Source: Candidatus Saccharimonadota bacterium
GTDB taxonomy: Archaea > Nanobdellota > Nanobdellia > Pacearchaeales > GW2011-AR1
NCBI GenBank assembly: GCA_017609205.1
Contig: JAFCEL010000001.1
Coordinates: 330,001 to 362,000 of the forward strand
Length of the DNA: 32,000 nucleotides
Reading direction: 5' to 3'
The notes under the pieces are model-generated. The model was not told the origin of the DNA and did not search any database. It was given only the letters and a program-made list of their open reading frames with translations. Shown here piece after piece: positions 11,026-32,000 of this stretch. The stretch's first letter is position 1. The number at the start of each line of letters is the position of its first letter. Made by a program: the position numbers and the translations under genes.

Positions 11026-11039
11026 GGAAGATTTATTAA

Positions 11040-13235: not shown

Positions 13236-13271
13236 CAGAAGTTTTATTAATAACAGATTTGTTTTAGAGTT

Positions 13272-13436
13272 ATGAAGTTTTTTTGTAAAAAAGGTGATGT
13301 TGAGACTAGTCAGCTAATAGGATGGGCCATTGCTATTGGCGTCTTTATTATTTTCTTCCTTTTTTTTATTAAGGGTGGAGAATGGGGGAAAGGAGCTGTT
13401 GATTTTGTAAGAAATCTTGTGAGGTTTGGAAGATGA
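13272..13436 (+). CDS. Mini prepilin-like protein (54 aa), not in ORF track
   Basis: MKFFCKKG|DVETSQLIGWAIAIGVFIIFFLFFI...: basic N-region, Gly, then a hydrophobic helix. Its TGA overlaps the next gene's ATG (ATGA at 13433-13436). Similar to the 42-aa ORF at 15104. Confidence 0.6.
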   Translation: MKFFCKKGDVETSQLIGWAIAIGVFIIFFLFFIKGGEWGKGAVDFVRNLVRFGR

Positions 13437-14194: not shown

Positions 14195-15093
14195 ACAATC
14201 ACGGTGATATAACATTAAAAGAATTTCTTGGAATAGCCATATTTATTATTGCAACACTTGTATTCTTTTTCCCCTTAGTTGGGAAATCCTGGGCAGTATT
14301 CAAAGGTGTTTCTGACAAGGAAAAATCAGATGTGAAACTTAATTTAATTTTTGAGAAGGTAGAGAAGATGGTTAGCGAGAATATTTCAGAGGATAGAAGC
14401 ATTCTCCTTGATTCTCCTAGAAATTGGTTTTTAGTGGGTTCTGGGGATAAGTTGTGTATTTGTAAAAATCTTGCAAAAGATGATGAGAATCAAGAGGAAG
14501 TTTGTAAAAGATATGGGGGAGTTTGTTCTGAGATGAGTTATGCTTTTAAAGTCGATTCTTATGAAGTGGATAATTCTAGAATGCAGGCAATTGTTGGGCG
14601 ACAATACGCTATAAAATTCGAAGTAAATAATTTTCTTGTAATAAGAAAAGATAAAAATAATTCTTTTATTTTTAGACCAAGTTCTGCTGAAACTGAACTG
14701 AATGATTTGTTGATGGATTATTTAGGTTCTAAGATTATTTACAACGGAAAACAGCAGACAATAGGTGAGTTTGTTAAGGACGCTTGTGAGAATCCAGAAT
14801 TATTCTATGAGAAATTATTTGAAAAGCATTTTTATAGTTTTTTTAATAGTGAAAAAATCCCTGAAGGGGAGCATATTAGAGTTGAATTTGGAAATCGATT
14901 GAGTCTTGGAAGCGAGAACTATGGGTTAATAAGTTCAGTTACTCTTCGAGAGATAAATTATCCTAAGGATTCACAATTTTCTAATAATTTTGTTCCTAAT
15001 GGAAAGTTTTCCACTAAACTTCCAACGACTTATGAGATTTTAAATGATGATTGTGTAGTTTATTTAACTTCCACAACAGGCAATCTAAATTAG
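14191..15093 (+). CDS. Prepilin-like protein (300 aa)
   Basis: MNNHG|DITLKEFLGIAIFIIATLVFFFPLV. ATGA overlap with the upstream gene. No other domain recognised. Confidence 0.6.
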   Translation: MNNHGDITLKEFLGIAIFIIATLVFFFPLVGKSWAVFKGVSDKEKSDVKLNLIFEKVEKMVSENISEDRSILLDSPRNWFLVGSGDKLCICKNLAKDDENQEEVCKRYGGVCSEMSYAFKVDSYEVDNSRMQAIVGRQYAIKFEVNNFLVIRKDKNNSFIFRPSSAETELNDLLMDYLGSKIIYNGKQQTIGEFVKDACENPELFYEKLFEKHFYSFFNSEKIPEGEHIRVEFGNRLSLGSENYGLISSVTLREINYPKDSQFSNNFVPNGKFSTKLPTTYEILNDDCVVYLTSTTGNLN

Positions 15094-15103
15094 AAAAAAT
15101 AAA

Positions 15104-15232
15104 ATGGTAAAAAAATTAGATAGAAAAGGTGAAATTTCAGAAATTCATTTTATTGACTGGTTATTATGGCTTGTTTTAGGCGTGATCCTTTTTGCAATAG
15201 TTTTTTATTTAAAAAAAAGGTTGTTTAATTAA
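15104..15232 (+). CDS. Mini prepilin-like protein (42 aa), not in ORF track
   Basis: MVKKLDRKG|EISEIHFIDWLLWLVLGVILFAIVFYLKKRLFN. Its stop is 1 nt before the next ATG (15234). Pattern KG-[DE]-[VI]-x-[ET]-x3-I-x-W is shared with the 13272 ORF. Confidence 0.55.
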   Translation: MVKKLDRKGEISEIHFIDWLLWLVLGVILFAIVFYLKKRLFN

Positions 15233-15233
15233 G

Positions 15234-16121
15234 ATGGAGAAGAGAGGATCGATTGTTGCAAACAAATTTGTGGGGATAGCTCTTTTAATTGCAGGGGCTA
15301 TGTTGATTATAGGATTTTTTTATTTTATAGATTGGGAAAAAGAAATTAGTCGCGAAGCATGTCACGAGTCAGTTATTGTTAGGGGAACACTACCAGACAC
15401 TTTTGAGTTTAAGAATCTTCCTTCGTTAAATTGTCAGACAAAAAGAATTTGTATTACTGATAAGCTGTTTGGGAAAGGAGATTGTGGTTATACTTCTTCA
15501 GATAATCCTGAGACAATAAGGGTTTCAAGTATTGCAGAGAAACAGGATAAAGAGATAAATAAAATCTTTGCAAGGGAAATGGCTGACTGCTGGGCAATGA
15601 TGGGTGAAGGAAAATTACAGATATTTACAAGGAATACTATTACAAAAAAGAGATGTTCTATTTGTACAATAATCTCTTTTGATGATGATTTAAGGAAAAA
15701 ACGAGATGTTATCTATGGTTTAGGTGATTATCTTATGACAAAACAGGTTCCTGGGAAAGAGCAGTCTTATGCTTTATTTTTAAAATTAAATAGAACTGAC
15801 TTAGAGAATCTGAATGGGATAACGACTAAAAGAAAGGCAATTTTATTCTTTGAAGTAGATAAATCTGATTTTTTAGAAAAAGGAGGCTTTGTTGTTGGGG
15901 GCATTGCTGGTTTTGTATTGGGAAAATTTGGAGGAAAACTTGCAAGTGTTGTAACAACAAAAACACTTTTTGCCATTGGGACTCTTGTTGGATATTCTGC
16001 GGGAGGTGTTGTTCAGGAAAAGATTTCTGAAGCAGATTATCTTTCTGGACATTCTCTTATTGATTATGACGAGGAACACTTAAAAGGGTTAGAGTGCGAT
16101 TCTATGGAAAGTCTCTCTTAG
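15234..16121 (+). CDS. Prepilin-like protein with a C-terminal glycine-zipper hydrophobic segment
   Basis: MEKRG|SIVANKFVGIALLIAGAMLIIGFFYF at the N-terminus. GGFVVGGIAGFVLGKFGGKLASVV...GTLVGYSAGGVV lies near the C-terminus. Several Cys in between. Confidence 0.6.
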   Translation: MEKRGSIVANKFVGIALLIAGAMLIIGFFYFIDWEKEISREACHESVIVRGTLPDTFEFKNLPSLNCQTKRICITDKLFGKGDCGYTSSDNPETIRVSSIAEKQDKEINKIFAREMADCWAMMGEGKLQIFTRNTITKKRCSICTIISFDDDLRKKRDVIYGLGDYLMTKQVPGKEQSYALFLKLNRTDLENLNGITTKRKAILFFEVDKSDFLEKGGFVVGGIAGFVLGKFGGKLASVVTTKTLFAIGTLVGYSAGGVVQEKISEADYLSGHSLIDYDEEHLKGLECDSMESLS

Positions 16122-16155
16122 TTAAATTTATAACTTTTCATTATTTATTGTTCTT

Positions 16156-16545
16156 ATGAAAAATAAAAGAGGGGATTTTGTTTTTGGCTATATTGTTACT
16201 ATTGCTGTTACTATAATCTTTTTTGTTATTTGTTTTGTTTTTTTATCAAGGGCATCAAGTGGGGCTGCAGTTTATGAGCAGGCATATTCAAAACAAATCG
16301 CTTTGATTATTGATAATGCAAGACCAAACACTATTTTTGAAATAGATTTTAGTGAAGGTATTGAATATCTTGAAAAAGAAAGAAAAAAGACACTAAGTAA
16401 TTCTGAAAAAAATTCTCTTGTTAAGATAGAAAATAATGAGGTAATTGTATCCCTCTCACAAGAAGGTTATTCCTCTGTTTTTTTTAGTGATTATGACGTT
16501 AGTTCCTCTTTTAATGAAAATAAACTTGTTTTGGTTGTAACATAA
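16156..16545 (+). CDS. Prepilin-like protein (129 aa)
   Basis: MKNKRG|DFVFGYIVTIAVTIIFFVICFVFL followed by a small soluble domain. Confidence 0.65.
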   Translation: MKNKRGDFVFGYIVTIAVTIIFFVICFVFLSRASSGAAVYEQAYSKQIALIIDNARPNTIFEIDFSEGIEYLEKERKKTLSNSEKNSLVKIENNEVIVSLSQEGYSSVFFSDYDVSSSFNENKLVLVVT

Positions 16546-16546
16546 A

Positions 16547-17038
16547 ATGAACAAAAAAGGAGAGAGAATTTTTTCAGTATGGTGGGTTCTTAGCATTGTC
16601 TTTATTAGTGTTGTTTTTGCAGGTGCAGTTTATATGATTTATTCAACAGACGTTAACATTCGTGATGAAGAATCAAAGATTCTGTATGAGAGAATTTATG
16701 ATTGTATTATTGAAAATGGTTATGTTTCTGAGGATTTTTTGAAGAATGATTTTGATATTTTTTCTGTGTGTAAATTGAATAAGAATCTTTTTTCAGAAGG
16801 ATTATTTGCATTTAGTATTTCTCTTTATGATGAAAATGATAATCTTGTTCAGGATAAATTCACAACTGGTTTTTCTGATATCTCTGAGAGATGTGTTTAT
16901 TCGAGAAGTTCAAAAAATTCTCCCACCTGCTTTGATAAAAAGTCTCTTGTTTTCTATTTTGATTCAAATAAAATCAGAAAGGGTTATCTTGAGATTCTTA
17001 CTGTTTCGAATAATTTTGAAAAGGGAGGTAGCAGATGA
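16547..17038 (+). CDS. Prepilin-like protein (163 aa)
   Basis: MNKKG|ERIFSVWWVLSIVFISVVFAGAVYMIY. Starts 1 nt after the previous stop. Confidence 0.65.
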   Translation: MNKKGERIFSVWWVLSIVFISVVFAGAVYMIYSTDVNIRDEESKILYERIYDCIIENGYVSEDFLKNDFDIFSVCKLNKNLFSEGLFAFSISLYDENDNLVQDKFTTGFSDISERCVYSRSSKNSPTCFDKKSLVFYFDSNKIRKGYLEILTVSNNFEKGGSR

Positions 17039-17577
17039 TATTGAGAAATAAGTGCGGTGGAATTCCGGAATCATTTTCTTGGTTTGTTGGTTTTTTAATA
17101 ATAATCTTTTTTTGTATTTTATTTCTTGCAGGAGTTTCATATTCAAAAGCAAAAAGTATTCCTCTTTCTTTTGGGGTTGGGGGCAATAATGTTGAAGGAT
17201 TTGGTGAAGGGGGTTGTGAGAAGGCCCTGAGTGAAGCCCTTATTAAGTTTGTCAATTATCCAGTAGCCCTTGAAAACGATTATAAGACTATTAAGGAATT
17301 TATTTCTGAAGATAATTTGTCGGATAATTTGTTCAAGGATTCTTCTGACGAGGTTTTTTCATCTTCCTTTCCAAAAAGTAGTTGGAAAGGTGGAGAGCCT
17401 CCTTGGTGGATAAAGGTTTATGGGTCTGATGGAAAAGAGATTTTTAGTAATGGGGGACGAATCTGCGAGTCAAAAGAGGAAGGTATTTATGAGCCAAGAG
17501 AAGATATTGTTTATGAGGTTTTAATTAAAGATAAGAAGGTTGTTGCGTGTTTGCTTAGAACATATTGTTCAGACTAA
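17035..17577 (+). CDS. Prepilin-like protein (180 aa)
   Basis: MILRNKCGG|IPESFSWFVGFLIIIFFCILFLAGV. ATGA overlap with the upstream gene. Confidence 0.6.
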   Translation: MILRNKCGGIPESFSWFVGFLIIIFFCILFLAGVSYSKAKSIPLSFGVGGNNVEGFGEGGCEKALSEALIKFVNYPVALENDYKTIKEFISEDNLSDNLFKDSSDEVFSSSFPKSSWKGGEPPWWIKVYGSDGKEIFSNGGRICESKEEGIYEPREDIVYEVLIKDKKVVACLLRTYCSD

Positions 17578-17578
17578 G

Positions 17579-18043
17579 ATGAAATCAAAAAATAATGCAG
17601 GAGTGATTGATGTTGTTGTAGTTGTTATGCTTTTTTTCGCATTAGTAGTTTCTTCTTTATTTGTTTTTTCAATGAGTTTTTCAAAGGCAAAAGTGAAAAT
17701 TTATGATTATCAGTTTATTGACGGTTTTTATGCAAAAGAGAAAATTGCAAAATATTATATTTTAGATGCAGGTCAAAAAGCAAAAAAGAAGATAAAAACT
17801 TTTTCTGATAAAGATGCTGTGAGAATTAATTTTATTTCTTATTTTAAGACTATTTTTTCTAACTATTCTTTTGATGAAGATTATTTAATCGAGCTTCAGA
17901 ATTCTGTGGAAAAAGATAATTTTGAGGTCGTTGTTGACGACGAGAAAATAATTATCAATGTTTATATGGAAATAAGTGGTTCGACAAGGAGTTTGAAAAT
18001 TATTTATCGTCCTGTGATTATAGAAGAATTTTATCTAGATTAA
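17579..18043 (+). CDS. Prepilin-like protein (154 aa)
   Basis: ATG at 17579 gives MKSKNNAG|VIDVVVVVMLFFALVVSSLFVF, 1 nt after the upstream stop. The track's alternative (non-ATG) start at 17540 would overlap the upstream gene by 38 nt. Confidence 0.6.
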   Translation: MKSKNNAGVIDVVVVVMLFFALVVSSLFVFSMSFSKAKVKIYDYQFIDGFYAKEKIAKYYILDAGQKAKKKIKTFSDKDAVRINFISYFKTIFSNYSFDEDYLIELQNSVEKDNFEVVVDDEKIIINVYMEISGSTRSLKIIYRPVIIEEFYLD

Positions 18044-18057
18044 AAACATTTATAAAT
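18042..18057 (+). promoter_or_regulatory. BRE/TATA-like promoter element of the Cys-rich prepilin-like gene (aaaaacatttataaat)
   Basis: Same 16-mer as at 27896-27911, ending about 21 nt upstream of ATG 18078. It lies in the only spacer over 30 nt inside the pilin gene string. Confidence 0.5.
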
Positions 18058-18077
18058 CTTATCTAATTAATAGAGAT

Positions 18078-18737
18078 ATGATAATAAAAAGGTGTGATAA
18101 ACATGGAGAAACTCAAGCATGGATTATTGGAATTATTCTTGCGATTGTTATTGGGGGATTAATATTATTTTTTGCTTCTAATGCATTCAGTAAAGTTGAG
18201 GGAGTTATAAATAAAGCTGATTTGGATATAGGGTTGATTTCACAAAAGTGTGATATTCAAATTGATATTTCAAAAGGAGAGGCTTATTGTGCTGAAAAGA
18301 TTCCTATTGGAGAAAGTAACAATTACATCACCTGCCCATATGCTAAGAAAAAGTTTGGCGTTACAACGGAGAGAGATATGCCTGAATGTGATATTGATGA
18401 GGGAGCAAAGGCTGTTTGTAGGAAATTGCTTGCAGAAGATAGCACAATTAAACCTGAGAAAATTTATGTTAATGAAAAACCTTGTTATAAGGCAGGGGGA
18501 ACAATAGGAAAGGATCATTGGGGGATTAATAGAGGAAGCTTTTGTGATGGGAATGCGATTGCTTGTGATAAATTGAGTTTATCAAATGACCCTCAGAAAG
18601 CAAAAAATGAGTGCGAATCCCAAAAAGGATGCGAATATAAAGAGAGTAAATGTGTTGGGACAGTCACTGCTTGTATAACTTTTGATGAATCACCCGAATG
18701 CGAATCCCAAAAAGGATGCTCTTGGATTGAAGTATAA
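18078..18737 (+). CDS. Cys-rich prepilin-like protein (219 aa)
   Basis: MIIKRCDKHG|ETQAWIIGIILAIVIGGLILFF, then a soluble region with about 15 Cys (hand count). It includes a duplicated ECESQKGC-x-[YW] unit. TATA-like box at 18049-18056. Confidence 0.65.
   Translation: MIIKRCDKHGETQAWIIGIILAIVIGGLILFFASNAFSKVEGVINKADLDIGLISQKCDIQIDISKGEAYCAEKIPIGESNNYITCPYAKKKFGVTTERDMPECDIDEGAKAVCRKLLAEDSTIKPEKIYVNEKPCYKAGGTIGKDHWGINRGSFCDGNAIACDKLSLSNDPQKAKNECESQKGCEYKESKCVGTVTACITFDESPECESQKGCSWIEV
18612..18719 (+). repeat. Intragenic 87-nt-period direct repeat (tgcgaatcccaaaaaggatgc x2)
   Basis: A 21-nt perfect repeat at 18612-18632 and 18699-18719 encoding CESQKGC twice within the 18078-18737 ORF. Confidence 0.85.
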
Positions 18738-18767
18738 ATATTTAAATTCTAATAAGTTTAATTTTAT

Positions 18768-18884
18768 ATGGCTCGTGGGGATGCTGAGCGACGGAATAAA
18801 GCAAAGAACAAAAGAAAAGAAAAGAAAAAACACCCTTATAGAAAAGGTGGTAAATATCGCTCTACAGGTTTAAAGCAGAAGTAA
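18768..18884 (+). CDS. Very basic 38-aa ORF, not in ORF track
   Basis: MARGDAERRNKAKNKRKEKKKHPYRKGGKYRSTGLKQK. TATA-like atatttaaat at 18738-18747 lies about 21 nt upstream of the ATG. Coding status is uncertain. Confidence 0.3.
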   Translation: MARGDAERRNKAKNKRKEKKKHPYRKGGKYRSTGLKQK

Positions 18885-18914
18885 TTTTATAAAGTTATCT
18901 TGTTTTTTTTATGA

Positions 18915-19739
18915 ATGTATAATGTGATTTTTTTGAGTGTTTTGACTATCTGTTGGATGATTGTTGCGAGTATTCAGGATATTAGGAAAAGAGAAATTGC
19001 TAATTGGCTTAATTTTTCTCTTATTATCTTTGCTCTTGGTTTTAGGTTTTTTTATTCTTCTTTTACTCATAATTTTGGGTTTTTTTATCAAGGGTTAATT
19101 GGATTAGGGATTTTTTTTGTTATTGGAAATATTTTTTATTATGGAAAGGTCTTTGCTGGGGGTGATGGAAAATTAATGGTTGCTCTCGGAGCAGTTCTTC
19201 CTTTTTCTGATAATTTTTTAACAAATATATCTGTTTTTATTGCTTTTATTTTTATTTTTTTAACAATTGGGGGGTTGTATGGTCTAGTCTGGAGTTTTGT
19301 TTTGGGAATTAAGAATTTTAAAAAATTAGAAAAAGAGTTTATTATCCAATTCAAGAAAAATAGAAAAGTTATTTTTTTAGTTTTAATTCCTGTATTCTCA
19401 ATGTTTTTGATATCTAGTCTAGTCTGGAGTTTGTTTTTTTATTTTGCTATATTAATCCTTGTTTTTGCTATTTTGTTTTTGTATGCAAGAAGTATAGAGG
19501 AAGTTTGCATGGTTAAAAAGATCTCAGTAGATGATTTAACAGAAGGAGACTGGCTTTATCGAACTGTTAGGGTTGGAAGGAAAGTTGTGAAGTCTAAGTG
19601 GGAAGGTGTTAATAAAGAGGAAATTAAATTGATAAGAAAATACCATAATAGGGTTAAGGTAAAATATGGAATCCCTTTTGCTCCGGTTTTTTTGATTAGT
19701 TTTCTGTTTTTGGTCTCTTTTTGGTTTGTGGTATTTTAA
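18915..19739 (+). CDS. A24-family prepilin/preflagellin peptidase (FlaK/PibD/EppA-like)
   Basis: Polytopic. First catalytic Asp context ASIQDIRKREI in TM1 and second Asp in a GxGD-type motif (FAGGDGKLMV). Extra soluble segment VDDLTEGDWLYRTVRVGRKVV before the last helix. Confidence 0.85.
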   Translation: MYNVIFLSVLTICWMIVASIQDIRKREIANWLNFSLIIFALGFRFFYSSFTHNFGFFYQGLIGLGIFFVIGNIFYYGKVFAGGDGKLMVALGAVLPFSDNFLTNISVFIAFIFIFLTIGGLYGLVWSFVLGIKNFKKLEKEFIIQFKKNRKVIFLVLIPVFSMFLISSLVWSLFFYFAILILVFAILFLYARSIEEVCMVKKISVDDLTEGDWLYRTVRVGRKVVKSKWEGVNKEEIKLIRKYHNRVKVKYGIPFAPVFLISFLFLVSFWFVVF

Positions 19740-24081: not shown

Positions 24082-24199
24082 TTGTTTTTTAATGAATTGT
24101 CTTTTTAAAATTTGTCTTTGTTTGTTTTAATTGCTATAATAATTTATTTTAATTCTTTTGGACAACAATACTTATAAATCATCTAGGATTTTTTTCTTT

Positions 24200-25141
24200 A
24201 TGGAGGGGAATTATGAGAGGATTGTAAGAAAAATTGCGTCTTCTTCAGGATTAGGTGAGGATGAAATTGAGAGAAGGGTTGAGGCAAAAAGAGCAAAACT
24301 TGCTGGATTAATTAGTAGGGAAGGCGCTGCACAAGTTATTGCTGCTGAATTAGGAATTAATTTTGATAATGAAAGATTAAAGATAAATGAACTTCTTCCT
24401 GGAATGAGAAGAGTTAATGTCGTTGGGAAGATAATTAATCTTTCTCCTGTAAGAACTTTTACTACTAAAAATGGGGAGGAAAGCAAGGTTTGTAACTTTC
24501 TTCTTGCTGATGATACTTCTAATGTGAGGGTTGTTTTATGGGATACTAATCATATTGAGTTAATAGAAAAAGGAGAGATTTCTGAGGGCAGTATGGTTGA
24601 GTTGTCTAATGGGACTATGAGAGATACAGAAATTCACTTAGGAAGTTTTTCTGAATTAAAGAAAAGCGAGGAGTCAATCGAGGATGTTAAAACAGAAAGA
24701 GTGGTTGCAGAAAAACAAATTTTTGAATTTAAAAACGGACAGAGTGTTTCTGTTAGAGCATTTATTGTTCAATCATTTGAACCTAGATTTTTTTATGTTT
24801 GCCCTGAATGCAGAAAAAAAGTTGTTTCTGGTTCAGAAGGCTTTGTTTGTGCAGAACATGGAAAAATAAATGCTGAGAAAAGAGCATTGATTAATTTTGT
24901 GATTGATGATGGAACCGAGACGATTCGTTCTGTTGTTTTTAGTGATGCTCTTTCTTCCTTGGGGATTACAGAATTAGAAAACCCTGAATTGCTTATTCAA
25001 CAGAGAGAAGATCTTTTGGGGAAGGAAATGGTATTTGTCGGGAATGTTAGAAATAATAAATTTTTTAACAATAGCGAATTGATTGTTGATGATATTAAGG
25101 AAGTTAATCTGGATGAATTAATTAATAGATTGGAGGATTAA
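24200..25141 (+). CDS. RPA-type single-stranded DNA-binding protein (replication factor A)
   Basis: OB-fold block VNVVGKIINLSPVRTFTTKNGEESKVCNFLLADDTSNVRVVLWD, a second OB with an embedded zinc ribbon (CPECRKKV...CAEHGK). ATG 24200 is preferred over TTG 24158 because ttataaat at 24172-24179 lies about 21 nt upstream of it. Confidence 0.8.
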   Translation: MEGNYERIVRKIASSSGLGEDEIERRVEAKRAKLAGLISREGAAQVIAAELGINFDNERLKINELLPGMRRVNVVGKIINLSPVRTFTTKNGEESKVCNFLLADDTSNVRVVLWDTNHIELIEKGEISEGSMVELSNGTMRDTEIHLGSFSELKKSEESIEDVKTERVVAEKQIFEFKNGQSVSVRAFIVQSFEPRFFYVCPECRKKVVSGSEGFVCAEHGKINAEKRALINFVIDDGTETIRSVVFSDALSSLGITELENPELLIQQREDLLGKEMVFVGNVRNNKFFNNSELIVDDIKEVNLDELINRLED

Positions 25142-25537
25142 ATGGTTTCTAAATTATTGAAGTTTGCTTCTTTTTTTATTTTTCCGTTTGTAATTTTATT
25201 CCTTGCTTTCTTTTTCTTCTTTTTTGGAATTTATTCTCTTTTTCCCTGGCTGGATAATCTCTTACATTTTATGGGGGGAATCTCTATTGCTTATACTTCT
25301 ATTTTGTTTCTTAGGGAATTTGAAGAAGAAATCGAGATCAGGAATAAGGTTATTTTTATAATTATTATTGCCTCAATTGTTAGTTTGGCTTCTGTACTTT
25401 GGGAGTTGTGGGAATTTACTTTTGGAAAAGTTTTTTCTGAGTCTTTTTTTGTACAGGAGGGTTTAGAAGACACTATTCTTGATTTATTTTTTGGGGTACT
25501 TGGTGGTGTTTGTGGAGGGGTTTTCAGTAAGATTTAA
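25142..25537 (+). CDS. Small integral membrane protein
   Basis: 131 aa with four hydrophobic segments. The ATG abuts the RPA stop. No family recognised. Confidence 0.5.
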   Translation: MVSKLLKFASFFIFPFVILFLAFFFFFFGIYSLFPWLDNLLHFMGGISIAYTSILFLREFEEEIEIRNKVIFIIIIASIVSLASVLWELWEFTFGKVFSESFFVQEGLEDTILDLFFGVLGGVCGGVFSKI

Positions 25538-25560
25538 ATTAAGGTTTGATTTTACAATCC

Positions 25561-26016
25561 ATGTTAATACGAACTCATCTTGCAATAACTTTATTTTTTG
25601 CGTTAATCTTTATTGATTTAATTAATCATAAAACAATTTTTCTTTTAGTTGCTTTGGTTGCAACTTTTATTCCAGATGTTGATTCGCGATTTTCTACACT
25701 TGGGAGAAGAAAGACAGCGAGGATTTTGCAATTTTTTACAAAGCATAGGGGATTTATTCATAGCTTTACTTTTCTTTTCTTAATTGTTCTATTCTTTATT
25801 TCATTCTTTCCTATTCTTGCTTTTCCTTTTTTTCTTGGCTATGGCTTGCACCTTTTTCTAGATGCCTTTACTCCTGAAGGAATTAAACCTTTTTATCCTT
25901 GGAAGAAAAAATCAACTGGTTGGATAAGGACGGGTAGTAGAAGTGAGATTCTTCTTTTTGTAGTCTTTATTGTGGGGGATTTGTTCTTGGCTTTTTTGAA
26001 GATTTTTCTTTCGTAA
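25561..26016 (+). CDS. YdjM/DUF457-like membrane-bound metal-dependent hydrolase
   Basis: THLAIT..., IPDVDS, HRGFIHSF and GYGLHLFLDAFTPEGIKPFYPW motifs. ATG 25561 is preferred over TTG 25546. Confidence 0.65.
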   Translation: MLIRTHLAITLFFALIFIDLINHKTIFLLVALVATFIPDVDSRFSTLGRRKTARILQFFTKHRGFIHSFTFLFLIVLFFISFFPILAFPFFLGYGLHLFLDAFTPEGIKPFYPWKKKSTGWIRTGSRSEILLFVVFIVGDLFLAFLKIFLS

Positions 26017-26047
26017 ATTATATAAATGAAGTGGTGCTGGTTTTATA

Positions 26048-26266
26048 ATGGAAGAAGCAAAATATTATCTTCCAGAGATTCTTACAAGACTCATCAGAGA
26101 GGGTTTTGAGGTGAGAAACCGTTATGAAACAGCTAAAAGAGGGAAAGGTGTTTTGACTTTATGCGAAGCAGAAGAGGATTTTATTTATTGGAAGGAGAGG
26201 ATGCACAAAGTCTATGAAATGCTGGGCTGGGATTCTAAATTAGTTGATTTTTTGGTTAATAATTGA
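26048..26266 (+). CDS. Hypothetical small protein
   Basis: 72-aa ORF with balanced composition and no motif recognised. Confidence 0.4.
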   Translation: MEEAKYYLPEILTRLIREGFEVRNRYETAKRGKGVLTLCEAEEDFIYWKERMHKVYEMLGWDSKLVDFLVNN

Positions 26267-26318
26267 TTATTGTTTCCGAGACTATAAATTCTTATAAAGT
26301 CAGGAGATTTTGAAGTTT

Positions 26319-27341
26319 ATGGTTGCAAAAAAGGAAGCTGAGGAGATTAAAAAGGCTATTTCTGGAGAAGAAAAAAGTATGAAGAAGAAAGGAAATAAAG
26401 AACCCCAATTAACTGATTTGCCAGGAATTGGTCCTGCTGTTGCGGCTAAATTAGAAAATGCAGGTGTTTTTGATATGATGGGTCTGGCTGTGATGAGTCC
26501 TTCTGTTTTGAGTGATGCTGCAGGTGTAAGTTCTGCTGTTGCGAGAAAAGCAATTCAGGCAGCGAGGGATATGCTTGATTTGGGATTTACTGATGGGATG
26601 GAATTCGCGAAGAAAAGAGAGAATATTAATTATATTACAACTGGAAGTAAAAATTTAAATGAACTTCTTGGGGGAAGAGGGGTTGAAAGTAGATCCATCA
26701 CAGAAGCATTTGGTGCTTATGGTTCAGGTAAGACTCAACTTGGTTTAACACTTTCTGTTAATGTTCAACTTCCTGTGGAAAAAGGCGGTGTTTCTGGAAA
26801 ATGTGTTTTTATAGATACAGAGGGAACTTTTAGGCCCCAGAGAATAAGACAAATTGCAGAGGGTATTGGGGCAAATCCTGAGAAGGTTTTAAAGAATATC
26901 TTTGTCGCAAGAGCATTTAATTCAGACCATCAGATTTTGTTATTAGAGAAAGTTGGAGAGATGATAAGGAATGGGGAGCCAATTAAATTGATGGTTGTTG
27001 ATTCTTTAACTGCGCATTTTAGAGCAGAATTTTCAGGACGCGGGCAACTCGCAGACCGGCAACAGAAATTAAATCGTTATATGCATGATTTAATGAAACT
27101 TGCAGAAACGCATAATCTTGCAGTTTATGTTACTAATCAAGTTATGGCAAATCCTGCACAATTGTTTGGTGATCCAACAACTGCAATAGGTGGAAACATT
27201 GTTGGACACGCTTCGACGTATAGAATATATCTTCGAAGAGGAAAACAAGGTTCAAGAGTCGCAAAATTAATTGATTCGCCAAATCTTCCTGACAATGAAG
27301 CTATATTTTGGGTTACAGATAGTGGTATTGTTGATGGGTGA
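26319..27341 (+). CDS. radA: DNA repair and recombination protein RadA
   Basis: N-terminal HhH (LTDLPGIGPAVAAKLENAGV), Walker A GAYGSGKTQ, Walker B LMVVDSLTAHFR and NQV...GGNIVGHAS. ATG 26319 follows the TATA-like ctataaat at 26282-26289. The track starts at TTG 26310. Confidence 0.95.
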   Translation: MVAKKEAEEIKKAISGEEKSMKKKGNKEPQLTDLPGIGPAVAAKLENAGVFDMMGLAVMSPSVLSDAAGVSSAVARKAIQAARDMLDLGFTDGMEFAKKRENINYITTGSKNLNELLGGRGVESRSITEAFGAYGSGKTQLGLTLSVNVQLPVEKGGVSGKCVFIDTEGTFRPQRIRQIAEGIGANPEKVLKNIFVARAFNSDHQILLLEKVGEMIRNGEPIKLMVVDSLTAHFRAEFSGRGQLADRQQKLNRYMHDLMKLAETHNLAVYVTNQVMANPAQLFGDPTTAIGGNIVGHASTYRIYLRRGKQGSRVAKLIDSPNLPDNEAIFWVTDSGIVDG

Positions 27342-27357
27342 TTTTCTTGAAACACAA

Positions 27358-27846
27358 TTACATGAAAAAATCCTGGATTGTTTTATAGGAGTGTAATTCT
27401 TTTTCATTGAACCATAACTTTATCTCATGTTTTGCATCTTTTTCATCGCTTGAAGCATGGATTATATTTTTGACAGGTATGTTTTTTGCGTCAGCATAAG
27501 CAAAACTTACATGAGCGAAATCTCCCCTAATTGTTCCTGGTGGTGCAGATTTTGGTTCTGTTCCTCCGACGATTTTTCGCACATTTTCAATGGCATTAAC
27601 TCCTTCTAGGGCTATTGCAATAACAGGCCCTTCTATTATATAGTTAAGTAATTGCTCTCTTACTTTTTCCCCTCTTCTTTCTGCAATATCTTCGGTGTAG
27701 TGTTTCTTAGCAAACTCTTTATCTACCCAGACTTGTTTCATACCGACGATTTTTAAACCAGCATCTTCAAATCTAGATATAATCTTTCCAACTAAGTGCC
27801 TTTGGACTCCTTCGGGTTTGATTAAAACTAATGTTCTTTCTTGCAT
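27358..27846 (-). CDS. ndk: Nucleoside diphosphate kinase
   Basis: ERTLVLIKPEGVQRHLVGKIISRFE, GTIRGDF and NIIHASSD (active-site His) motifs. Confidence 0.9.
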   Translation of the reverse strand: MQERTLVLIKPEGVQRHLVGKIISRFEDAGLKIVGMKQVWVDKEFAKKHYTEDIAERRGEKVREQLLNYIIEGPVIAIALEGVNAIENVRKIVGGTEPKSAPPGTIRGDFAHVSFAYADAKNIPVKNIIHASSDEKDAKHEIKLWFNEKELHSYKTIQDFFM

Positions 27847-27895: not shown

Positions 27896-27911
27896 AAAAA
27901 CATTTATAAAT
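27896..27911 (+). promoter_or_regulatory. BRE/TATA-like promoter element of the giant ORF (aaaaacatttataaat)
   Basis: A purine-rich stretch followed by tttataaa, about 29 nt upstream of GTG 27939. An identical 16-mer occurs at 18042-18057. Confidence 0.5.
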
Positions 27912-27938: not shown

Positions 27939-30900
27939 GTGGTGATAAGAAATAAAGAATTAGCTTTATTGGTTTTTGTTTTATTCTCTTTTCTCGCTTT
28001 TGTTATAAATTCTGTTTCTGCTGAATGGGTGGATTGTTGGCAATACGGACCAATGGATGCAAATGATCCTAATGTTTGTTCTTCTAATGGTTGTATTGTA
28101 ACCTCTTTAACAGGAAGTGTGGATAGTTCTTATGGTTATACTGGGGAAGTTGTTCAGGATTTGTGGTGTGGAACTGATATGTCTTATTGTTGTCTTCCAA
28201 AAGAATGTTGGCTTTGGGATGAGACGAATCAAACTCTTTGTGAAGAGAATGATGGTACATTAAACTGTACTTGGAATGGTTTTCCTTCAACTATGTATCT
28301 TCCAAATGGTTCTGAATATACAATGAATGGAACTTGTAATATGGATTGGGATTCTATGGGAGAAGATATCTGGGGAGGTGTTTCTGATGGTTGTTGGCAG
28401 TATGATGGAGATAAGCAGCAGTGTATAAGTAATTATCAGAAGTGTGAATGGAAACCGAATGATGCAAATCAGAATCCTTGGTGTTGGATAAAAAATTTAC
28501 AAGATGCACAAGCTCAGAATCCTCTTGCTGATTCTGATGATATTGGTTGTTGTGATATGAAGGGTTGCTGGAGTTATGATGGAAATGAGACAAGATGTCT
28601 GACAGACCCAAGCTTTGCAGGACTTTGCACTTTTGTGAATAAAACGGATGATCCTTGGTGTCCAGATCCTGTTGGCTGTTGCTATACCAAAAGCTGTTCA
28701 GAAGTGGGAAGTAATCAGACACTTTGTAATTTACTTAAAAAACAAATGATGATGCCTTGTGAATTTAATGCTACTGGAGATGGTACATGCGGTGATTTTG
28801 GTGGAAGTGGTGGGGGTTTTGCATTTTTTAATGATACTGATTCATGTATGCAGCAAGGAGGATGGTATGATATTAATGGAAATTGCATGATGCCTAATAT
28901 GACTGATGTTGGTGGTGCTTTTATGTTTGGAGGCGAGGCACATTGTTGGTTTGCAGATAATCAGCCATTTGTTTGTGGGAATATAACTGGCTGTGTTTAT
29001 TGTGTTGCTGGAAGCGGACCAAATGGGGTTGAAAATTGTACTGATGGAGATGGTAATGGTTATTCAGATAATATCTGCTGCGGTAAGCAAGTTGGATTTT
29101 GTGAGGGCCATAATTTTTGGGACAATGAAATGAATTATTCAAATTCTGATGACTCAACAAATCTTAATTGCACTCATATTAAAATTAAAAGCGCGTGCAA
29201 ATACGGACCACTTCCAAATTGTATATGGAGTAATTCAACTGCTTTAATAGGTGAATATTGTAATCCTGGAACAAGTACAGAAGCAAAAGATGCCCCTCCT
29301 GTCCCTTTTTGTGAGCATCCTGATGCAAAGAATAATGAGACAATGTGTAATAATCTGGCTATTAATTATATGATGCCTTGTAAGTGGTATGAGAATTATA
29401 CAAATGTTAATGGAGTTATGGTAGTTAATTGTTCTTTTAATCCTAATGCTGTTTTTGGTTCTGAATCCAATGCTGAAAAAGATTTCTTGGTTATTAATTC
29501 AGAATATTCCTGTATTGCTGCAGGAGGAACCTGGCAGACGTCTTATTATATTGAGAATAATATCTTGAAGCAGGATTCTTGGTGTGAAAAAGGTGCGTTA
29601 TTTGATCCTCTTGCAGGACAGGCCGCAGGAAATAAAGGAAATTGTGATATGGATTGTTGGGCTTGCGAATTCAGGTATAATGGAAGTAGGTGGGATAATG
29701 CAACCCAGGCAGAGAGTGCCTGTGTTGGTTCTGCATTGGGTTATTGTCGTTGGACAAATGATACAAATGCTCCAAATCAGCAAGGATGGTGTGATTATCC
29801 TCAAGAAATGACTTATGGGGCAGGAGATTGCAATATTAATTGTAAAGATTGTGATTTGAAGTTAGATGCATATGATGCTTGTATTAATAGTCAGGCAGAA
29901 TGTAAATGGGTAAATAATACTAACTCGAATGGAGAGTTTTTATCAACGGGTTATTGTGTATCCAAAGATAAGAAAACTTGTTTAGATGATTGTTTTTCTT
30001 GTTATAGTGAGAATGATTGTTTTGCTTCAACATTAGACTGCTTATGGGATACAACAGCTAAATTATGTAAGCCAAATAGCTTTTCAGGAGAAATTTGTTT
30101 TGATGCAGTAGATAATGATAATGATGGGTTTACTGATTGTGCAGATCCTGATTGTTCTTTTGATAATGCATGTGGAGGAAATAATTTTGCTGATTGTATG
30201 TCCATAACAAATGCCACGGTGTGTAATGCAACTGTTGCATTTGGAAATCTGAATTGTACATGGTATAATTTTACTTGGGAACCTGAAGGACATTGTGGAA
30301 TGCCTGGAGAAGATTGTTGGCAGTATGACGGAGACCCTGCAACATGTGGAGCAACACCTGGTTGCACAAACGAGTCTTCATTTGGAGGGTCAAGTGGTTT
30401 TTGTGATATTAATACTACACAAATGGATAATGCTCAGTGCTGGCAATATGGAGATAATGAAACTTATTGTTCTGCTCAGGCAAATTGTGGTTGGGTTAAT
30501 GATTCATGGTGTACTGAGCATCCAGAGGATTCATGGTGTGCTACTGGACCAGGTGGATGGTGTGATTATAAACTATTTGCTGATTGTCGTGCACTTGATG
30601 GAAACCAAACAGGGTGTGGGTTGAATCCCAATTGTACATGGCATCAAGACGAATGGATGGATACTGGTTTTTGTGATCCTGCTTGTTTTGATTGGACATT
30701 GAATTCAACAACTTGTGTACAAGGAAATTTATCAGGAATTTGTGAGTGGAGGGATTCTTCTGATATGTGCATGCCTTCGACATTTGATATTATGGCAGGA
30801 GGTTCTGGAGGTAAAATTGGTTGTCCTCAATATGATGGAAATATGACTGGATGTCAACTAAAGAATATTACATGTGTTTGGGTTAATGATTCAAATGTGG

Positions 30901-32000
30901 ATAATAGAGTCACTACTAATGTTGCTGGGCAAAATATTTCTGGTTGGTGTAATGATAAGGGAACTTATGAAATGGTTGGGGATATGAAAGGAGAACCAAT
31001 AATGTTGGGAATGGATTCGGGAAATATGATGGGTGGTGCAGAATCAGGTGTTGTTGGATGGGCTGATATAAAGGGATTTGGATTAAGAGTAACAGACAAG
31101 TCTTATGGTTTTGGTGTTGGTATTTATAATCTGACTGATGGCGCTGTTTGTAATGGATACCAAATGAAGTTCGCTGAGCTGGGGGTTGATGGGGCTACTG
31201 GTGCAGGGCAGAATATTACAAAGATGAGGTGGTATTTGGATACTGATGGAGATTCTTCTTTTGGAAGCCATTGCGGAGCTACTGACTCAAATGGTGCTTC
31301 CTGTGATTCGAGCTCGTCCAATTTATGCAATTATGAATTTTATATAGATTATATGGTGAGAAACAATACAAATACAGGGAATATAGAAACGACAAAGAAA
31401 TTATATTATTGTGTTATGAATGGAAGTACAGGATGGCAATGGGCACCTACAAATGTTTTTGTTACAGATGATAAGAAATTTACATGCTGGGATTCTGGTA
31501 TGGGGGCTCTTCTTGTAAGCATTGAAAAAGAAGCTTTTGAAAATTTTGCTTTATTTGATATTACACAACCAATGAGGATTTTTGTGGTAAGCTTTGATGG
31601 ACCTGGAAGTGGAGATGGTGCAGATGAATTAGGACCTTCATATTATACTCCTGGAACAATTGATTTTGGATTTGTAGATTGCTCTGACCCGAATACAAAA
31701 GACCCTAAATGTAAAAATTTCCAGAAATTTGGAACACAGGTTTTTGAGGATTGCAAGAATGGATATGACGATGATTCAGATGGTTATGCTGATTGTGCTG
31801 ATGCTAAATGCACTTTTACTCCTGTTTGTGCGTCAGGAACAGCTTTTAACTGGACATCTCAGTGCTCGTCCGACTATAAAGCTCCTGTTGTTGTATTTAC
31901 AAATGTAGATAAAATGGCTGATTCTGCAATTATTCAATATGATACTGATGAGCCAGCAAATGGAAGTTTGATTTGGTATAATACAAGTTCGACATGTGAG
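27939..32000 (+). CDS. Giant secreted Cys/Trp/Asn-rich repeat surface protein (putative glycosylated adhesin or S-layer-like), 3' partial; absent from the ORF track
   Basis: I translated frame 3 codon by codon from 27939 to 32000: 1,354 codons with no stop, and the last codon ends exactly at the window edge. The frame opens at 27849 (TAA at 27846-27848). GTG 27939 (or 27942) gives MVIRNKELALLVFVLFSFLAFVINSVSA|EW, a textbook Sec signal peptide. The first in-frame ATG (28053) lies beyond it. TATA-like tttataaa at 27903-27910. Confidence 0.85.
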   Translation, partial: MVIRNKELALLVFVLFSFLAFVINSVSAEWVDCWQYGPMDANDPNVCSSNGCIVTSLTGSVDSSYGYTGEVVQDLWCGTDMSYCCLPKECWLWDETNQTLCEENDGTLNCTWNGFPSTMYLPNGSEYTMNGTCNMDWDSMGEDIWGGVSDGCWQYDGDKQQCISNYQKCEWKPNDANQNPWCWIKNLQDAQAQNPLADSDDIGCCDMKGCWSYDGNETRCLTDPSFAGLCTFVNKTDDPWCPDPVGCCYTKSCSEVGSNQTLCNLLKKQMMMPCEFNATGDGTCGDFGGSGGGFAFFNDTDSCMQQGGWYDINGNCMMPNMTDVGGAFMFGGEAHCWFADNQPFVCGNITGCVYCVAGSGPNGVENCTDGDGNGYSDNICCGKQVGFCEGHNFWDNEMNYSNSDDSTNLNCTHIKIKSACKYGPLPNCIWSNSTALIGEYCNPGTSTEAKDAPPVPFCEHPDAKNNETMCNNLAINYMMPCKWYENYTNVNGVMVVNCSFNPNAVFGSESNAEKDFLVINSEYSCIAAGGTWQTSYYIENNILKQDSWCEKGALFDPLAGQAAGNKGNCDMDCWACEFRYNGSRWDNATQAESACVGSALGYCRWTNDTNAPNQQGWCDYPQEMTYGAGDCNINCKDCDLKLDAYDACINSQAECKWVNNTNSNGEFLSTGYCVSKDKKTCLDDCFSCYSENDCFASTLDCLWDTTAKLCKPNSFSGEICFDAVDNDNDGFTDCADPDCSFDNACGGNNFADCMSITNATVCNATVAFGNLNCTWYNFTWEPEGHCGMPGEDCWQYDGDPATCGATPGCTNESSFGGSSGFCDINTTQMDNAQCWQYGDNETYCSAQANCGWVNDSWCTEHPEDSWCATGPGGWCDYKLFADCRALDGNQTGCGLNPNCTWHQDEWMDTGFCDPACFDWTLNSTTCVQGNLSGICEWRDSSDMCMPSTFDIMAGGSGGKIGCPQYDGNMTGCQLKNITCVWVNDSNVDNRVTTNVAGQNISGWCNDKGTYEMVGDMKGEPIMLGMDSGNMMGGAESGVVGWADIKGFGLRVTDKSYGFGVGIYNLTDGAVCNGYQMKFAELGVDGATGAGQNITKMRWYLDTDGDSSFGSHCGATDSNGASCDSSSSNLCNYEFYIDYMVRNNTNTGNIETTKKLYYCVMNGSTGWQWAPTNVFVTDDKKFTCWDSGMGALLVSIEKEAFENFALFDITQPMRIFVVSFDGPGSGDGADELGPSYYTPGTIDFGFVDCSDPNTKDPKCKNFQKFGTQVFEDCKNGYDDDSDGYADCADAKCTFTPVCASGTAFNWTSQCSSDYKAPVVVFTNVDKMADSAIIQYDTDEPANGSLIWYNTSSTCE

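Follow-up and report, generated by a model that had tools for sequence, protein, structure and literature searches.

A tandem array of four-cysteine CW modules in a predicted surface protein of a DPANN archaeon

The EGF-like and laminin/TNFR-type repeats of extracellular proteins are arranged in tandem, carry interleaved 1-3/2-4 disulfides and form rigid extracellular stalks that are often glycosylated and contain interspersed Ca2+ sites. The PSI domain holds eight cysteines in a knot and is marked by a C-x-W-C motif. Repeat arrays densely stapled by disulfides are typical of the extracellular proteins of eukaryotes; in archaea they are, to our knowledge, unusual, and the archaeal S-layer proteins characterised so far are, as far as we know, Cys-poor and have no array of disulfide mini-domains. 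The ultra-small archaea of the Pace-, Woese- and Aenigmatarchaeota are abundant and uncultivated, and we know of essentially no characterisation of their cell envelope and host-contact molecules.

The window (the whole 32,000-nucleotide stretch of DNA that was analysed) ends within a long ORF whose frame, followed from position 27942, contains no stop codon up to the window end. The translation was identical to database protein P0001, which gave a full length of 1811 aa. The TATA box upstream of this ORF (Table 1) is its putative promoter, and the mRNA probably has no leader or only a very short one. The predicted protein has a type-I anchored layout, in which a signal peptide, with a putative cleavage site between NSVSA and EW, is followed by a module array with teneurin-like motifs, a beta-sandwich chain, a linker and a transmembrane helix; the sequence features of the C-terminal end of P0001 are a single transmembrane helix and then a basic tail. 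The Cys/Trp-rich (CW) modules make up the membrane-distal ~1000 residues of the 1811-aa protein, which has the features of a secreted protein, a large ectodomain rich in N-glycosylation sequons, and a membrane anchor at the C-terminus. Three antisense ORFs (28354-28722, 30002-30367 and 30541-30783, minus strand) and an ORF in another plus-strand frame (30295-30624) were rejected as by-products of the long ORF.

Table 1. Features of the surface-protein ORF and its upstream region; HMM scores refer to the module HMM and HHalign values are probabilities.
Feature	Position (nt)	Strand	Residues (aa)	HMM (bits)	HHalign	Remarks
Archaeal TATA box	27903..27910	+				TTTATAAA; ~30 nt 5' of start codon; read from sequence
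Surface-protein ORF, 5' part	27942..32000	+	1-1353 of 1811			GTG start; continues past window end
Signal peptide	27942..28022	+				MIRNKE-LALLVFVLFSFLAFVI-NSVSA, then EW; n-, h- and c-regions visible in sequence
M1	28035..28169	+	32-76	0.4	86-96% to M2-M4, M13-M15, M17	Long C3-C4 loop; then CC pair at aa 83/84
M2	28206..28337	+	89-132	19.6	86-97%	
M3	28392..28484	+	151-181	28.8		
M4	28566..28682	+	209-247	22.6		Inserted Cys pair aa 240/246
M5	28695..28790	+	252-283	7.0	97% to M8	Divergent
M6	28944..29102	+	335-387	-7.9	79-88%, to M13 only	Elaborated variant, marginal member; six conserved Cys
M7	29169..29261	+	410-440	17.7	75-85% to M10, 65-77% to M8	
M8	29310..29432	+	457-497	21.3	97% to M5	
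M9	29643..29792	+	568-617	24.8	94-98% to M10, M14, M15	Six-Cys form, N-terminal C-x3-C-x2-C
M10	29829..29957	+	630-672	21.6	88-97% to M9, M12, M14, M17	Six-Cys form
M11	29979..30068	+	680-709	11.5	74-87% to M2 and M12; 62-76% to M10	Six-Cys form
Acidic double-disulfide motif 1	30096..30173	+				CFDAVDNDNDGFTDCADPDCSFDNAC; domain distinct from CW module; NF033662 match
M12	30195..30296	+	752-785	28.7		Model pLDDT 80-90
M13	30315..30404	+	792-821	26.9	93-97% to M1, M3, M14, M15, M17	
M14	30438..30563	+	833-874	24.4		Inserted Cys pair aa 857/866
M15	30585..30674	+	882-911	35.5		Nearest to consensus; pLDDT about 90-95
M16	30684..30770	+	915-943	19.6		
M17	30822..30950	+	961-1003	24.9	95-98% to M1-M4	Last of array
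Cys-poor beta-sandwich (FN3/Ig-like) chain, start	30975..32000	+	1012-1598 in full protein			
Acidic double-disulfide motif 2	31752..31829	+			98% to motif 1	CKNGYDDDSDGYADCADAKCTFTPVC; best NF033662 stretch aa 1269-1296

The CW module is a genuine repeat. The motifs listed in an earlier sequence-only reading of this DNA were all found at their nucleotide positions when the frame containing position 27801 was translated. The pattern CW.[YWF] and the full three-Cys pattern each occurred six times, compared with 0.45 and 0.04 occurrences in composition-preserving shuffles. A module HMM identified 14 copies scoring at least 8 bits, against 0.00 per shuffled region, and one further copy at 7.0 bits. 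All-against-all HHalign comparison of module sub-alignments from 64 homologs gave a core set of M1-M4, M12-M15 and M17 at 75-98% probability, to which M9, M10, M16, M11, M7, M5/M8 and M6 were joined transitively by strong links; reversed profiles scored ~0 and non-module segments did not join. M1, which has a low HMM score because of its long insert, and M6 were admitted solely by profile-profile links. The proposed copy number of about 17 is borne out, since HMM and profile-profile links, set against the shuffled and reversed controls, give 15 solid and two marginal modules.

The repeat unit itself had to be redrawn. It had been described as a three-Cys unit of 25-35 aa, but a fourth conserved cysteine follows the C-x-W, in most cases within G-[WFY]-C-[DE], and the unit is therefore a four-Cys module with a core of 29-53 aa, repeated with a period of 33-115 aa. 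The consensus is C1-[WF]-x-[YW]-D-G-N-x-[TS]-x-C2-x(3-9)-C3-x-W-x-N-[DS]-[ST]-...-G-[WFY]-C4, and M9-M11 carry an additional N-terminal C-x3-C-x2-C. The modules that had been listed are real, but M5, M9 and M11 had been missed, and the array, which had been placed as far as 30896, ends at nt 30950 (C1003).

The array is old and restricted to DPANN archaea. The modules are orthologously conserved in the 64 homologs, down to 34% identity, and modules within one protein are mutually just 15-45% identical, which agrees with the proposal that the array is old and did not arise by recent duplication. The proposal that the scaffold is conserved as the rest drifts likewise holds among these homologs, in which nearly all cysteines of the array are invariant, whereas in canonical modules the positions other than Cys and Trp vary more than any others in the protein (2.1-2.5 bits compared with 1.4-1.7 for the beta domains). 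Lineages differ in the number of modules, which ranges from about 15 to about 36, and M2 was not alignable as a four-Cys module in ~17 of the 64 homologs. Modules were carried by 79 of 1.84 billion representative proteins (E ≤ 0.001), all named carriers being DPANN, and 49 species-level genomes each had one locus; the closest species-level genome was a Pacearchaeota MAG at 66% identity. The neighbours of the gene are housekeeping genes, and synteny with radA is conserved. Short matches from the large search were rejected as independent small module proteins because in them tandem modules follow a signal peptide and the end is truncated or frameshifted, which makes them N-terminal fragments. 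Literature searches on DPANN/Woesearchaeota S-layers, cysteine-rich surface proteins and the NCBIfam repeat name returned nothing on a CW-module protein family.

The modules had been described as either disulfide-stabilised or metal-binding, and of these the first is favoured. Variable cysteines were gained or lost strictly pairwise in the homolog alignment: cysteines 240 and 246 of M4 occur together in 29 homologs and cysteines 857 and 866 of M14 in 25, never one alone, and the total number of cysteines is even in 54 of the 64. C1 and C3 were jointly lost from M3 in P0024, P0031 and P0032, from M5 in P0051, P0058 and P0060, and from M16 in P0091, three independent losses (replacements A/Y, A/Y and V/F) in which C2 and C4 were retained. 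From the pairwise gain and loss and these three correlated events we infer an interleaved connectivity, C1-C3 and C2-C4. Four invariant cysteines per roughly 35 aa, in organisms that often live without oxygen, might also be taken as Cys4 knuckles in which Zn or Fe is held by the four cysteines without disulfides, but this explanation is highly improbable for an extracellular domain flanked by a signal peptide and a C-terminal transmembrane anchor. The loss of exactly C1 and C3 to hydrophobic residues in three lineages, with the remaining module kept, would wreck a tetrahedral metal site and is a classic route to losing one disulfide. The extra cysteines always occur as nearby pairs, the canonical modules have no His or CxxC knuckle pattern, and the AF2 model is confident without a metal. 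Disulfides are therefore favoured over metal on the extracellular location, the pairwise behaviour of the cysteines, their even number and the joint loss of C1 and C3. Many Pace-/Woesearchaeota-type DPANN archaea inhabit anoxic environments, in which extracellular disulfide formation needs explaining; the window ORFs that were scanned included no recognisable gene for Dsb, VKOR or AglB.

The AF2 models contained two short helices and a beta-hairpin per module, with a pLDDT of 80-95 across M12-M16 and an identical helix-helix-hairpin pattern in every module. Each module has a conserved aromatic residue after C1, a Trp two residues past C3 and an aromatic residue before C4. With hardly any hydrophobic core predicted, the disulfides and the packing of these aromatic residues would hold each module together.

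The CW module is previously undescribed, with no significant known-family match in Pfam, NCBIfam, PDB profiles, Foldseek or HHalign. Pfam gave nothing on the array at E ≤ 1 for the window protein or at E ≤ 0.1 for five full-length homologs, and the only NCBIfam match on the window protein was an acidic double-disulfide repeat, a motif other than the CW module. The PSI HMMs (PF01437, PF17205 and PF24479) had no match at the gathering threshold, 4 of 106 single modules matching below it (best E = 0.0066), and the PSI eight-Cys knot with C-x-W-C is absent, as canonical modules have four cysteines and none directly after the Trp. EGF-clan Pfam HMMs matched neither the window protein, the homologs nor single modules, and the module spacing differs; TSP_1, a domain with six cysteines and a WxxW ladder of Trp residues, had no HMM match, and the consensus lacks such a ladder. 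When the module profile was compared with PDB sequences no PSI domain was found, and the sole sequence at E ≤ 10 was the C-terminal domain of the variant surface glycoprotein (VSG; PF10659), at a non-significant E of 0.6 against 5m4t; the corresponding sub-threshold value was 0.037 for 3 of 106 modules. Foldseek searches with a six-module model gave no module match in the PDB or BFVD and no PSI, EGF or TSR chain at E ≤ 10 in the PDB. HHalign of each module profile against the verified PSI domain of MET (1ssl), a template consisting of a single sequence, gave probabilities no higher than 5%, as the reversed control did.

The sequence-only reading had called a likeness to PSI superficial and had asserted no homology, a caution that was right because no test supports membership of PSI, EGF or TSR, and the modules did not map cleanly onto any described family. 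It is improbable that they are a divergent member of a known eukaryote-type family (PSI, EGF-like, TSR, VSG C-terminal or Paramecium surface-antigen repeat) that has diverged too far for these tests. Single modules did give sub-threshold Pfam matches to Paramecium_SA in five cases (best E = 0.0038), PSI-type domains in four (best 0.0066), Trypan_glycop_C in three and Trefoil in four, but such E-values are at chance level for 106 queries. The VSG domain is the only PDB sequence within E ≤ 10, and M9-M11 have a PSI-like CxxC ahead of the C-x-W; set against this, full-length scans of five family members gave no Pfam match at E ≤ 0.1 on the array, the confident six-module model retrieved no PSI, EGF or TSR structure at E ≤ 10, HHalign against the MET PSI domain did not exceed its reversed control, and the probable 1-3/2-4 four-Cys topology and the spacing are unlike those of the PSI knot with its eight cysteines and of the EGF domain with its six.

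The acidic double-disulfide repeat matched NCBIfam NF033662 at 48.2 bits in the window protein and 45.8 bits in P0001 (cutoff 41), with two stretches in each, and other family members scored 25-45 bits. The teneurin-4 C-rich domain binds three Ca2+ through acidic residues, which stabilises the ectodomain (PMC9058538). The family profile of the acidic motif matched this domain (7plp) at E = 0.0014, and Foldseek aligned the two at 50% identity with an rmsd of 1.7 Å (E = 0.65). The archaeal motifs, the teneurin domain and NF033662 share C-x-D-x-x-D-N-D-x-D-G-x-x-D-C-x-D-P-D-C, with four cysteines in 26 aa in the archaeal motif compared with six in 38 aa in teneurin. The acidic residues align with the region of the Ca-ligating residues of teneurin-4, and by analogy both archaeal motifs probably bind Ca2+.

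The beta-sandwich chain was modelled by AF2 as almost entirely beta, with a mean pLDDT of 76. Foldseek matched it to FN3/Ig arrays, to the bacterial adhesins Sas6 and antigen I/II, and to the Haloferax S-layer protein csg, the match to the archaeal S-layer protein being generic (rank 28, E = 8e-4). N-glycosylation sequons were enriched in the Cys-rich region (38 observed, 12.9 ± 3.1 expected) and in the beta region (16 observed, 8.0 expected), with a family median of 56 per protein. The module consensus itself includes sequons, usually one or two per module, which suggests that the modules may be N-glycosylated. The PGF-pre-PGF domain (TIGR04213) was found in the Aenigmatarchaeota homolog P0089 at 95.2 bits; in P0001, P0023 and P0082 it had no match at E ≤ 0.1. 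The beta-sandwich chain, the PGF-pre-PGF domain of P0089, the acidic ectodomain (pI about 4.1), the one locus per genome and the housekeeping neighbours form the surface context for an envelope role.

It is rather likely that the CW-module array is the outer part of the main envelope (S-layer-type) protein, glycosylated and rigidified by disulfides, of a Pacearchaeota/Woesearchaeota-type DPANN archaeon. The modules, the two teneurin-like, putatively Ca2+-binding motifs and the beta-sandwich chain would together project from the membrane as a stiff stalk or canopy, resistant to proteases and coated with glycans. An S-layer role is not specifically favoured over that of other large surface proteins, because the Foldseek likeness is generic. 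The distal array may instead be mainly a ligand- or host-binding surface by which an ectosymbiotic DPANN cell recognises its host and keeps hold of it, so that the protein is a host-attachment adhesin and not a general envelope component, as in eukaryotic receptors that use PSI, EGF and TSR arrays. This is the main alternative, possible but less likely, and it is compatible with an envelope role. The membrane-distal position of the modules in a type-I protein would suit it, as would the likeness of the beta-sandwich part to bacterial adhesins and, ~8 kb upstream in this window, a cluster that resembles those of type-IV pili and includes an SLT lytic transglycosylase. Against it, the protein contained no lectin or binding domain that could be recognised. 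The exposed positions and loop lengths of the modules evolve fastest in the protein, the copy number differs between lineages and M2 is absent in a clade, and an interaction role accounts for the variable module number and fast-evolving surfaces no less well than a purely structural role would. An adhesin would nevertheless have to be reconciled with occurrence once per genome, with a location among housekeeping genes, and with a length and architecture conserved over several DPANN orders whose hosts are probably very different.

For the envelope reading, the family is large, conserved, unannotated, clearly of the surface and apparently present once per genome, and is therefore a concrete candidate for the DPANN cell cover. 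A wider claim, that the CW module is a new DPANN-specific extracellular fold evolved independently of eukaryotic Cys-rich repeats and that its carrier is the main envelope (S-layer) and host-contact protein of Pace-, Woese- and Aenigmatarchaeota, is speculative and somewhat doubtful. If true, it would provide an archaeal counterpart of the way metazoan adhesion receptors are designed, uniting arrays of disulfide mini-domains, FN3-like domains and a teneurin-type Ca2+ domain on a single-pass anchor, and would imply a dedicated extracellular disulfide-forming system in reduced, often anaerobic cells. The family raises the questions of how DPANN cells oxidise about 50 cystines beyond the membrane and of how much convergence lies behind eukaryote-like extracellular architectures. 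The module HMM and consensus could be the basis of a new domain family, by which hundreds of 'hypothetical' proteins would be annotated.

When compared with known systems, the CW module resembles the PSI domain (PF01437) as a small extracellular disulfide-rich domain of short helices and a small beta-sheet with a C-x-W, found in the arrays or stalks of type-I surface receptors; the preceding CxxC is shared by M9-M11 only, and the CW module differs in its four cysteines, probable 1-3/2-4 pairing and absence of a Cys after the Trp. The tandem arrangement, small size and probable interleaved 1-3/2-4 disulfides recall EGF-like and laminin/TNFR-type repeats, although EGF domains have six cysteines paired 1-3, 2-4 and 5-6, an all-beta fold and another spacing, and gave no sequence or structure match here. 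The VSG C-terminal domain (PF10659; 5m4t) is likewise a four-Cys mini-domain of ~30 aa in a glycosylated surface-coat protein, with the similar spacing C-x9-C-x6-C-x-aromatic-x7-C; it occurs as one or two copies adjoining the membrane, whereas the CW array is distal with ~17 copies, and as the organisms are unrelated it is at most an analogue. To archaeal S-layer glycoproteins the CW-module protein shows no more than a generic fold similarity. With csg of Haloferax volcanii (7ptp) it shares a signal peptide, a large acidic ectodomain, here predicted to be N-glycosylated, with Ig/FN3-like beta-sandwiches, a linker that is flexible, a membrane anchor at the C-terminus and, in one member of the CW family, PGF-pre-PGF.

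The CW modules (M1–M17) form an array in a long surface protein, and the module very probably belongs to a new family of extracellular, disulfide-bonded repeat domains. The frame translation of the plus strand is stop-free from 27942 to the window end and was identical to a database protein of 1811 aa (P0001), so that the window covers residues 1–1353. The gene lies among housekeeping genes, adjoining radA and ndk, with ndk on the opposite strand between radA and the surface-protein gene. The order OB-fold (RPA-like) protein, small membrane proteins (YdjM), radA and surface protein (24158–27846) recurs with a homolog of 48% identity (GCA_018653485.1; contig L001, 4159–7836) and is not kept in the Aenigmatarchaeota member (contig L002). 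ORFs of 80–122 aa overlap the surface-protein gene at 28354–28722 (-), 30002–30367 (-), 30541–30783 (-) and 30295–30624 (+, other frame); in all likelihood they are artefacts accompanying the long ORF.

Features of the window and of the encoded surface protein P0001
Feature	Window position (nt)	Strand	Residues (P0001)	Remarks
T2SSE ATPase	8737–11025			
731-aa ORF	11040–13235			no Pfam match
SLT lytic transglycosylase domain protein	13433–14194			
Several small ORFs	16156–18737			no Pfam match, possibly pilins
Prepilin peptidase A24	18915–19739			
Archaeal TATA box	27903–27910			TTTATAAA, ~30 nt upstream of start codon
Surface-protein start codon	27942	+		GTG
CW module array	28035–30950	+		
Signal peptide			1–27	
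Cys-rich array			28–1011	
Acidic D-x-D-x-D-G / four-Cys motif 1	30096–30173		719–744	matches NF033662, teneurin-4
Cys-poor region			1012–1598	
Acidic D-x-D-x-D-G / four-Cys motif 2	31752–31829		1271–1296	matches NF033662, teneurin-4
Ser/Gly linker, small β domain, acidic stretch			1599 to ~1765	
Single TM helix and basic tail			~1766–1811	

All motif strings quoted in the sequence-only reading were found in place in the ORF translation. The protein contains 8% Cys and 3.5% Trp; CW.[YWF] and the full three-Cys pattern each occurred 6 times, compared to 0.45 and 0.04, respectively, in shuffles. The 64 full-length homologs were aligned (alignment A1), each candidate module was excised as a sub-alignment and all were compared with one another using HHalign, which revealed a mutually supporting core of M1–M4, M12–M15 and M17 at 75–98% probability. 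M9 and M10 (83–98%), M16 (approximately 90%), M11 (74–87%) and, via M10, M7 (75–85%) were linked to the module set, M5 and M8 matched each other at 97%, and M6 matched M13 at 79–88%. Reversed-profile controls were essentially zero, neither the Cys-containing spacers (aa 302–334 and 524–567) nor three Cys-poor control segments were linked to the modules, and the two acidic motifs matched each other only. The pooled module HMM gave 14 copies of at least 8 bits in P0001, compared to 0.00 per region in composition-matched shuffles, with M5 scoring 7.0 bits; relatives outside the HMM training gave 9–25 such copies, and the seven largest arrays 16–25. The HHalign links and HMM copies thus bear out the earlier count of about 17, as 15 solid and 2 marginal modules. 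The feature is real and ancient.

The pooled alignment gave the module consensus [DG]-C1-[WF]-x-[YC]-D-(G)-N-[EQ]-[TS]-x-C2-x(3-8)-[NG]-C3-x-W-x-N-[DS]-[ST]-x(n)-G-[WFY]-C4-[DE]. The unit had been described as 25–35 aa with three Cys; the repeat itself stood, the length was too short and there is a fourth conserved Cys. In P0001 the module core spans 29–53 aa with a C1-to-C1 distance of 33–115 aa, and M9–M11 carry an extra C-x3-C-x2-C at the N-terminal side. An AlphaFold2 model of residues 715–1011, using 43 sequences, had a mean pLDDT of 76, and 80–95 across M12–M16. The modelled modules share a pair of short helices, one around C1 and one before C2, followed by a β-hairpin whose strands bear C3-x-W and G-W-C4.

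Nearly all Cys of residues 28–1011 are retained without change even in homologs with as little as 34% identity, and the few variable ones are strictly paired: Cys240 and Cys246 occur together in 29 sequences and Cys857 and Cys866 in 25, no member of either pair ever alone, and Cys366 and Cys380 occur in P0001 only. The Cys count of this region is even in 54 of the 64 homologs. In three independent events hydrophobic residues took the place of C1 and C3 together and C2, C4 and the aromatics stayed, namely in M3 of homologs P0024, P0031 and P0032 (A or P, and Y), M5 of P0051, P0058 and P0060 (A and Y) and M16 of P0091 (V and F). Together with the extracellular topology, the paired behavior and joint loss support a predicted connectivity of two interleaved cystines, C1–C3 and C2–C4. 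The same observations favor the first half of the earlier proposal of a "disulfide-stabilised or metal-binding" array and argue against the second.

The Cys-poor region was predicted to be a chain of β-sandwich domains (mean pLDDT 76), with Foldseek matches to FN3/Ig arrays, bacterial adhesins, complement MG domains and, as a generic match, the Haloferax S-layer protein csg. The acidic motifs, where ectodomain conservation is highest (entropy ~1.1 bits), matched the "C-rich" domain of human teneurin-4 with a profile E of 0.0014 and, in Foldseek, 50% identity and an rmsd of 1.7 Å; in teneurin-4 that domain binds three Ca2+ ions and lends stability to the ectodomain (PMC9058538). The P0001 ectodomain has a pI of ~4.1. 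The array contains 38 N-glycosylation sequons compared to 12.9 ± 3.1 expected, and the family median is 56 per protein. Sequons occupy two fixed places within the module consensus (pooled module alignment, 28035–30950), N-[EQ]-[TS]-x-C2 and either N-C3-[ST] or W-x-N-[DS]-[ST], so selection appears to act on where the predicted glycans sit with respect to the disulfide scaffold. The scaffold is invariant, and variability within the protein is highest in the module surfaces and loops, a distribution that fits an exposed position.

In the best-supported reading the CW modules would be core-less mini-domains, each held by two cystines and aromatic packing and carrying one or two N-glycans. The array would then be a distal stalk or canopy that is stiff, resists proteases and is shielded by glycans, borne by a type-I anchored major surface protein. 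A role specifically in the envelope or S-layer has roughly an even chance, and a host-contact adhesin role would be compatible with it, the two not being exclusive. Members from different lineages seem to be anchored differently: Aenigmatarchaeota P0089 carries, near its C-terminus (aa 1427–1562; L002), a PGF-pre-PGF domain (TIGR04213, 95 bits), unlike P0001 and other Pace-/Woese-type members, in which a simple TM helix is followed by a basic tail.

The module profile, run with HMMER against all 1.84 billion representative proteins, gave only 79 matches at E ≤ 0.001, and the named proteins among these are all from Woesearchaeota or Aenigmatarchaeota. The short matches were N-terminal fragments of proteins like P0104 and P0105 (~2540 aa; alignment A4), which have the central and C-terminal core of P0001 and expanded, very regular N-terminal arrays with a period of ~30–33 aa, containing 25 modules at ≥8 bits and 34–36 at ≥5 bits (module HMM). 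Large-array relatives of this type belong to Aenigmatarchaeota/Woesearchaeota. The number of modules is plastic in evolution, and M2 was not alignable as a four-Cys module in approximately 17 of the 64 close homologs. A single family locus per genome was observed in 49 species-representative genomes, labelled Pace-, Woese-, Nano- or Aenigmatarchaeota, the closest being a Pacearchaeota MAG at 66% identity. Contigs L010, L038, L042, L048 and L051 also carry clear family members under the labels "uncultured Methanosarcinales", "Methanobacteriota" or "Hydrothermarchaeaceae"; the probable explanation is faulty binning or labelling of DPANN contigs within public MAGs, with real transfer as the alternative. 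This DPANN surface protein is conserved and wholly unannotated, and is of moderate to high interest for archaeal cell biology and protein-family annotation.

Elsewhere in the window a type-IV-pilus/secretion-like cluster occupies 8737–19739. The peptidoglycan-cleaving SLT domain encoded there is a surprise for an archaeon and could indicate an interaction with the walls of bacterial cells.

Pfam gave no match at E ≤ 1 for the window protein, nor at E ≤ 0.1 for five members of the family, and NCBIfam recognised the two acidic motifs and nothing else. The sole match of the module profile among all PDB sequences at E ≤ 10 was the trypanosome VSG C-terminal domain, not significant at E = 0.6, and Foldseek of the residue 715–1011 model against the PDB and BFVD returned no chain matching the module. 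When 106 single modules were compared with Pfam, chance-level matches were obtained to Paramecium_SA (five), PSI-type (four), Trypan_glycop_C (three) and Trefoil (four) domains, sharing the theme of small Cys-rich surface domains. When each module profile was aligned by HHalign to a verified sequence of the MET PSI, the probability was ≤5%, as in the reversed control. Membership of the PSI, EGF or TSR families is therefore unsupported, and the sequence-only reading, which noted a PSI likeness without asserting homology, was aptly cautious; of the module HMM and Pfam comparison that it proposed, the HMM recovers the copies and Pfam yields chance-level matches only. The module is undescribed in the domain libraries and literature searched. 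The defining Cys patterns of PSI, EGF and TSR differ from its four-Cys design with putative 1–3/2–4 pairing, and the likeness is functional, all being small disulfide-stapled extracellular units in arrays. The CW module is not categorically new; its domain family is new but of a generally familiar kind.
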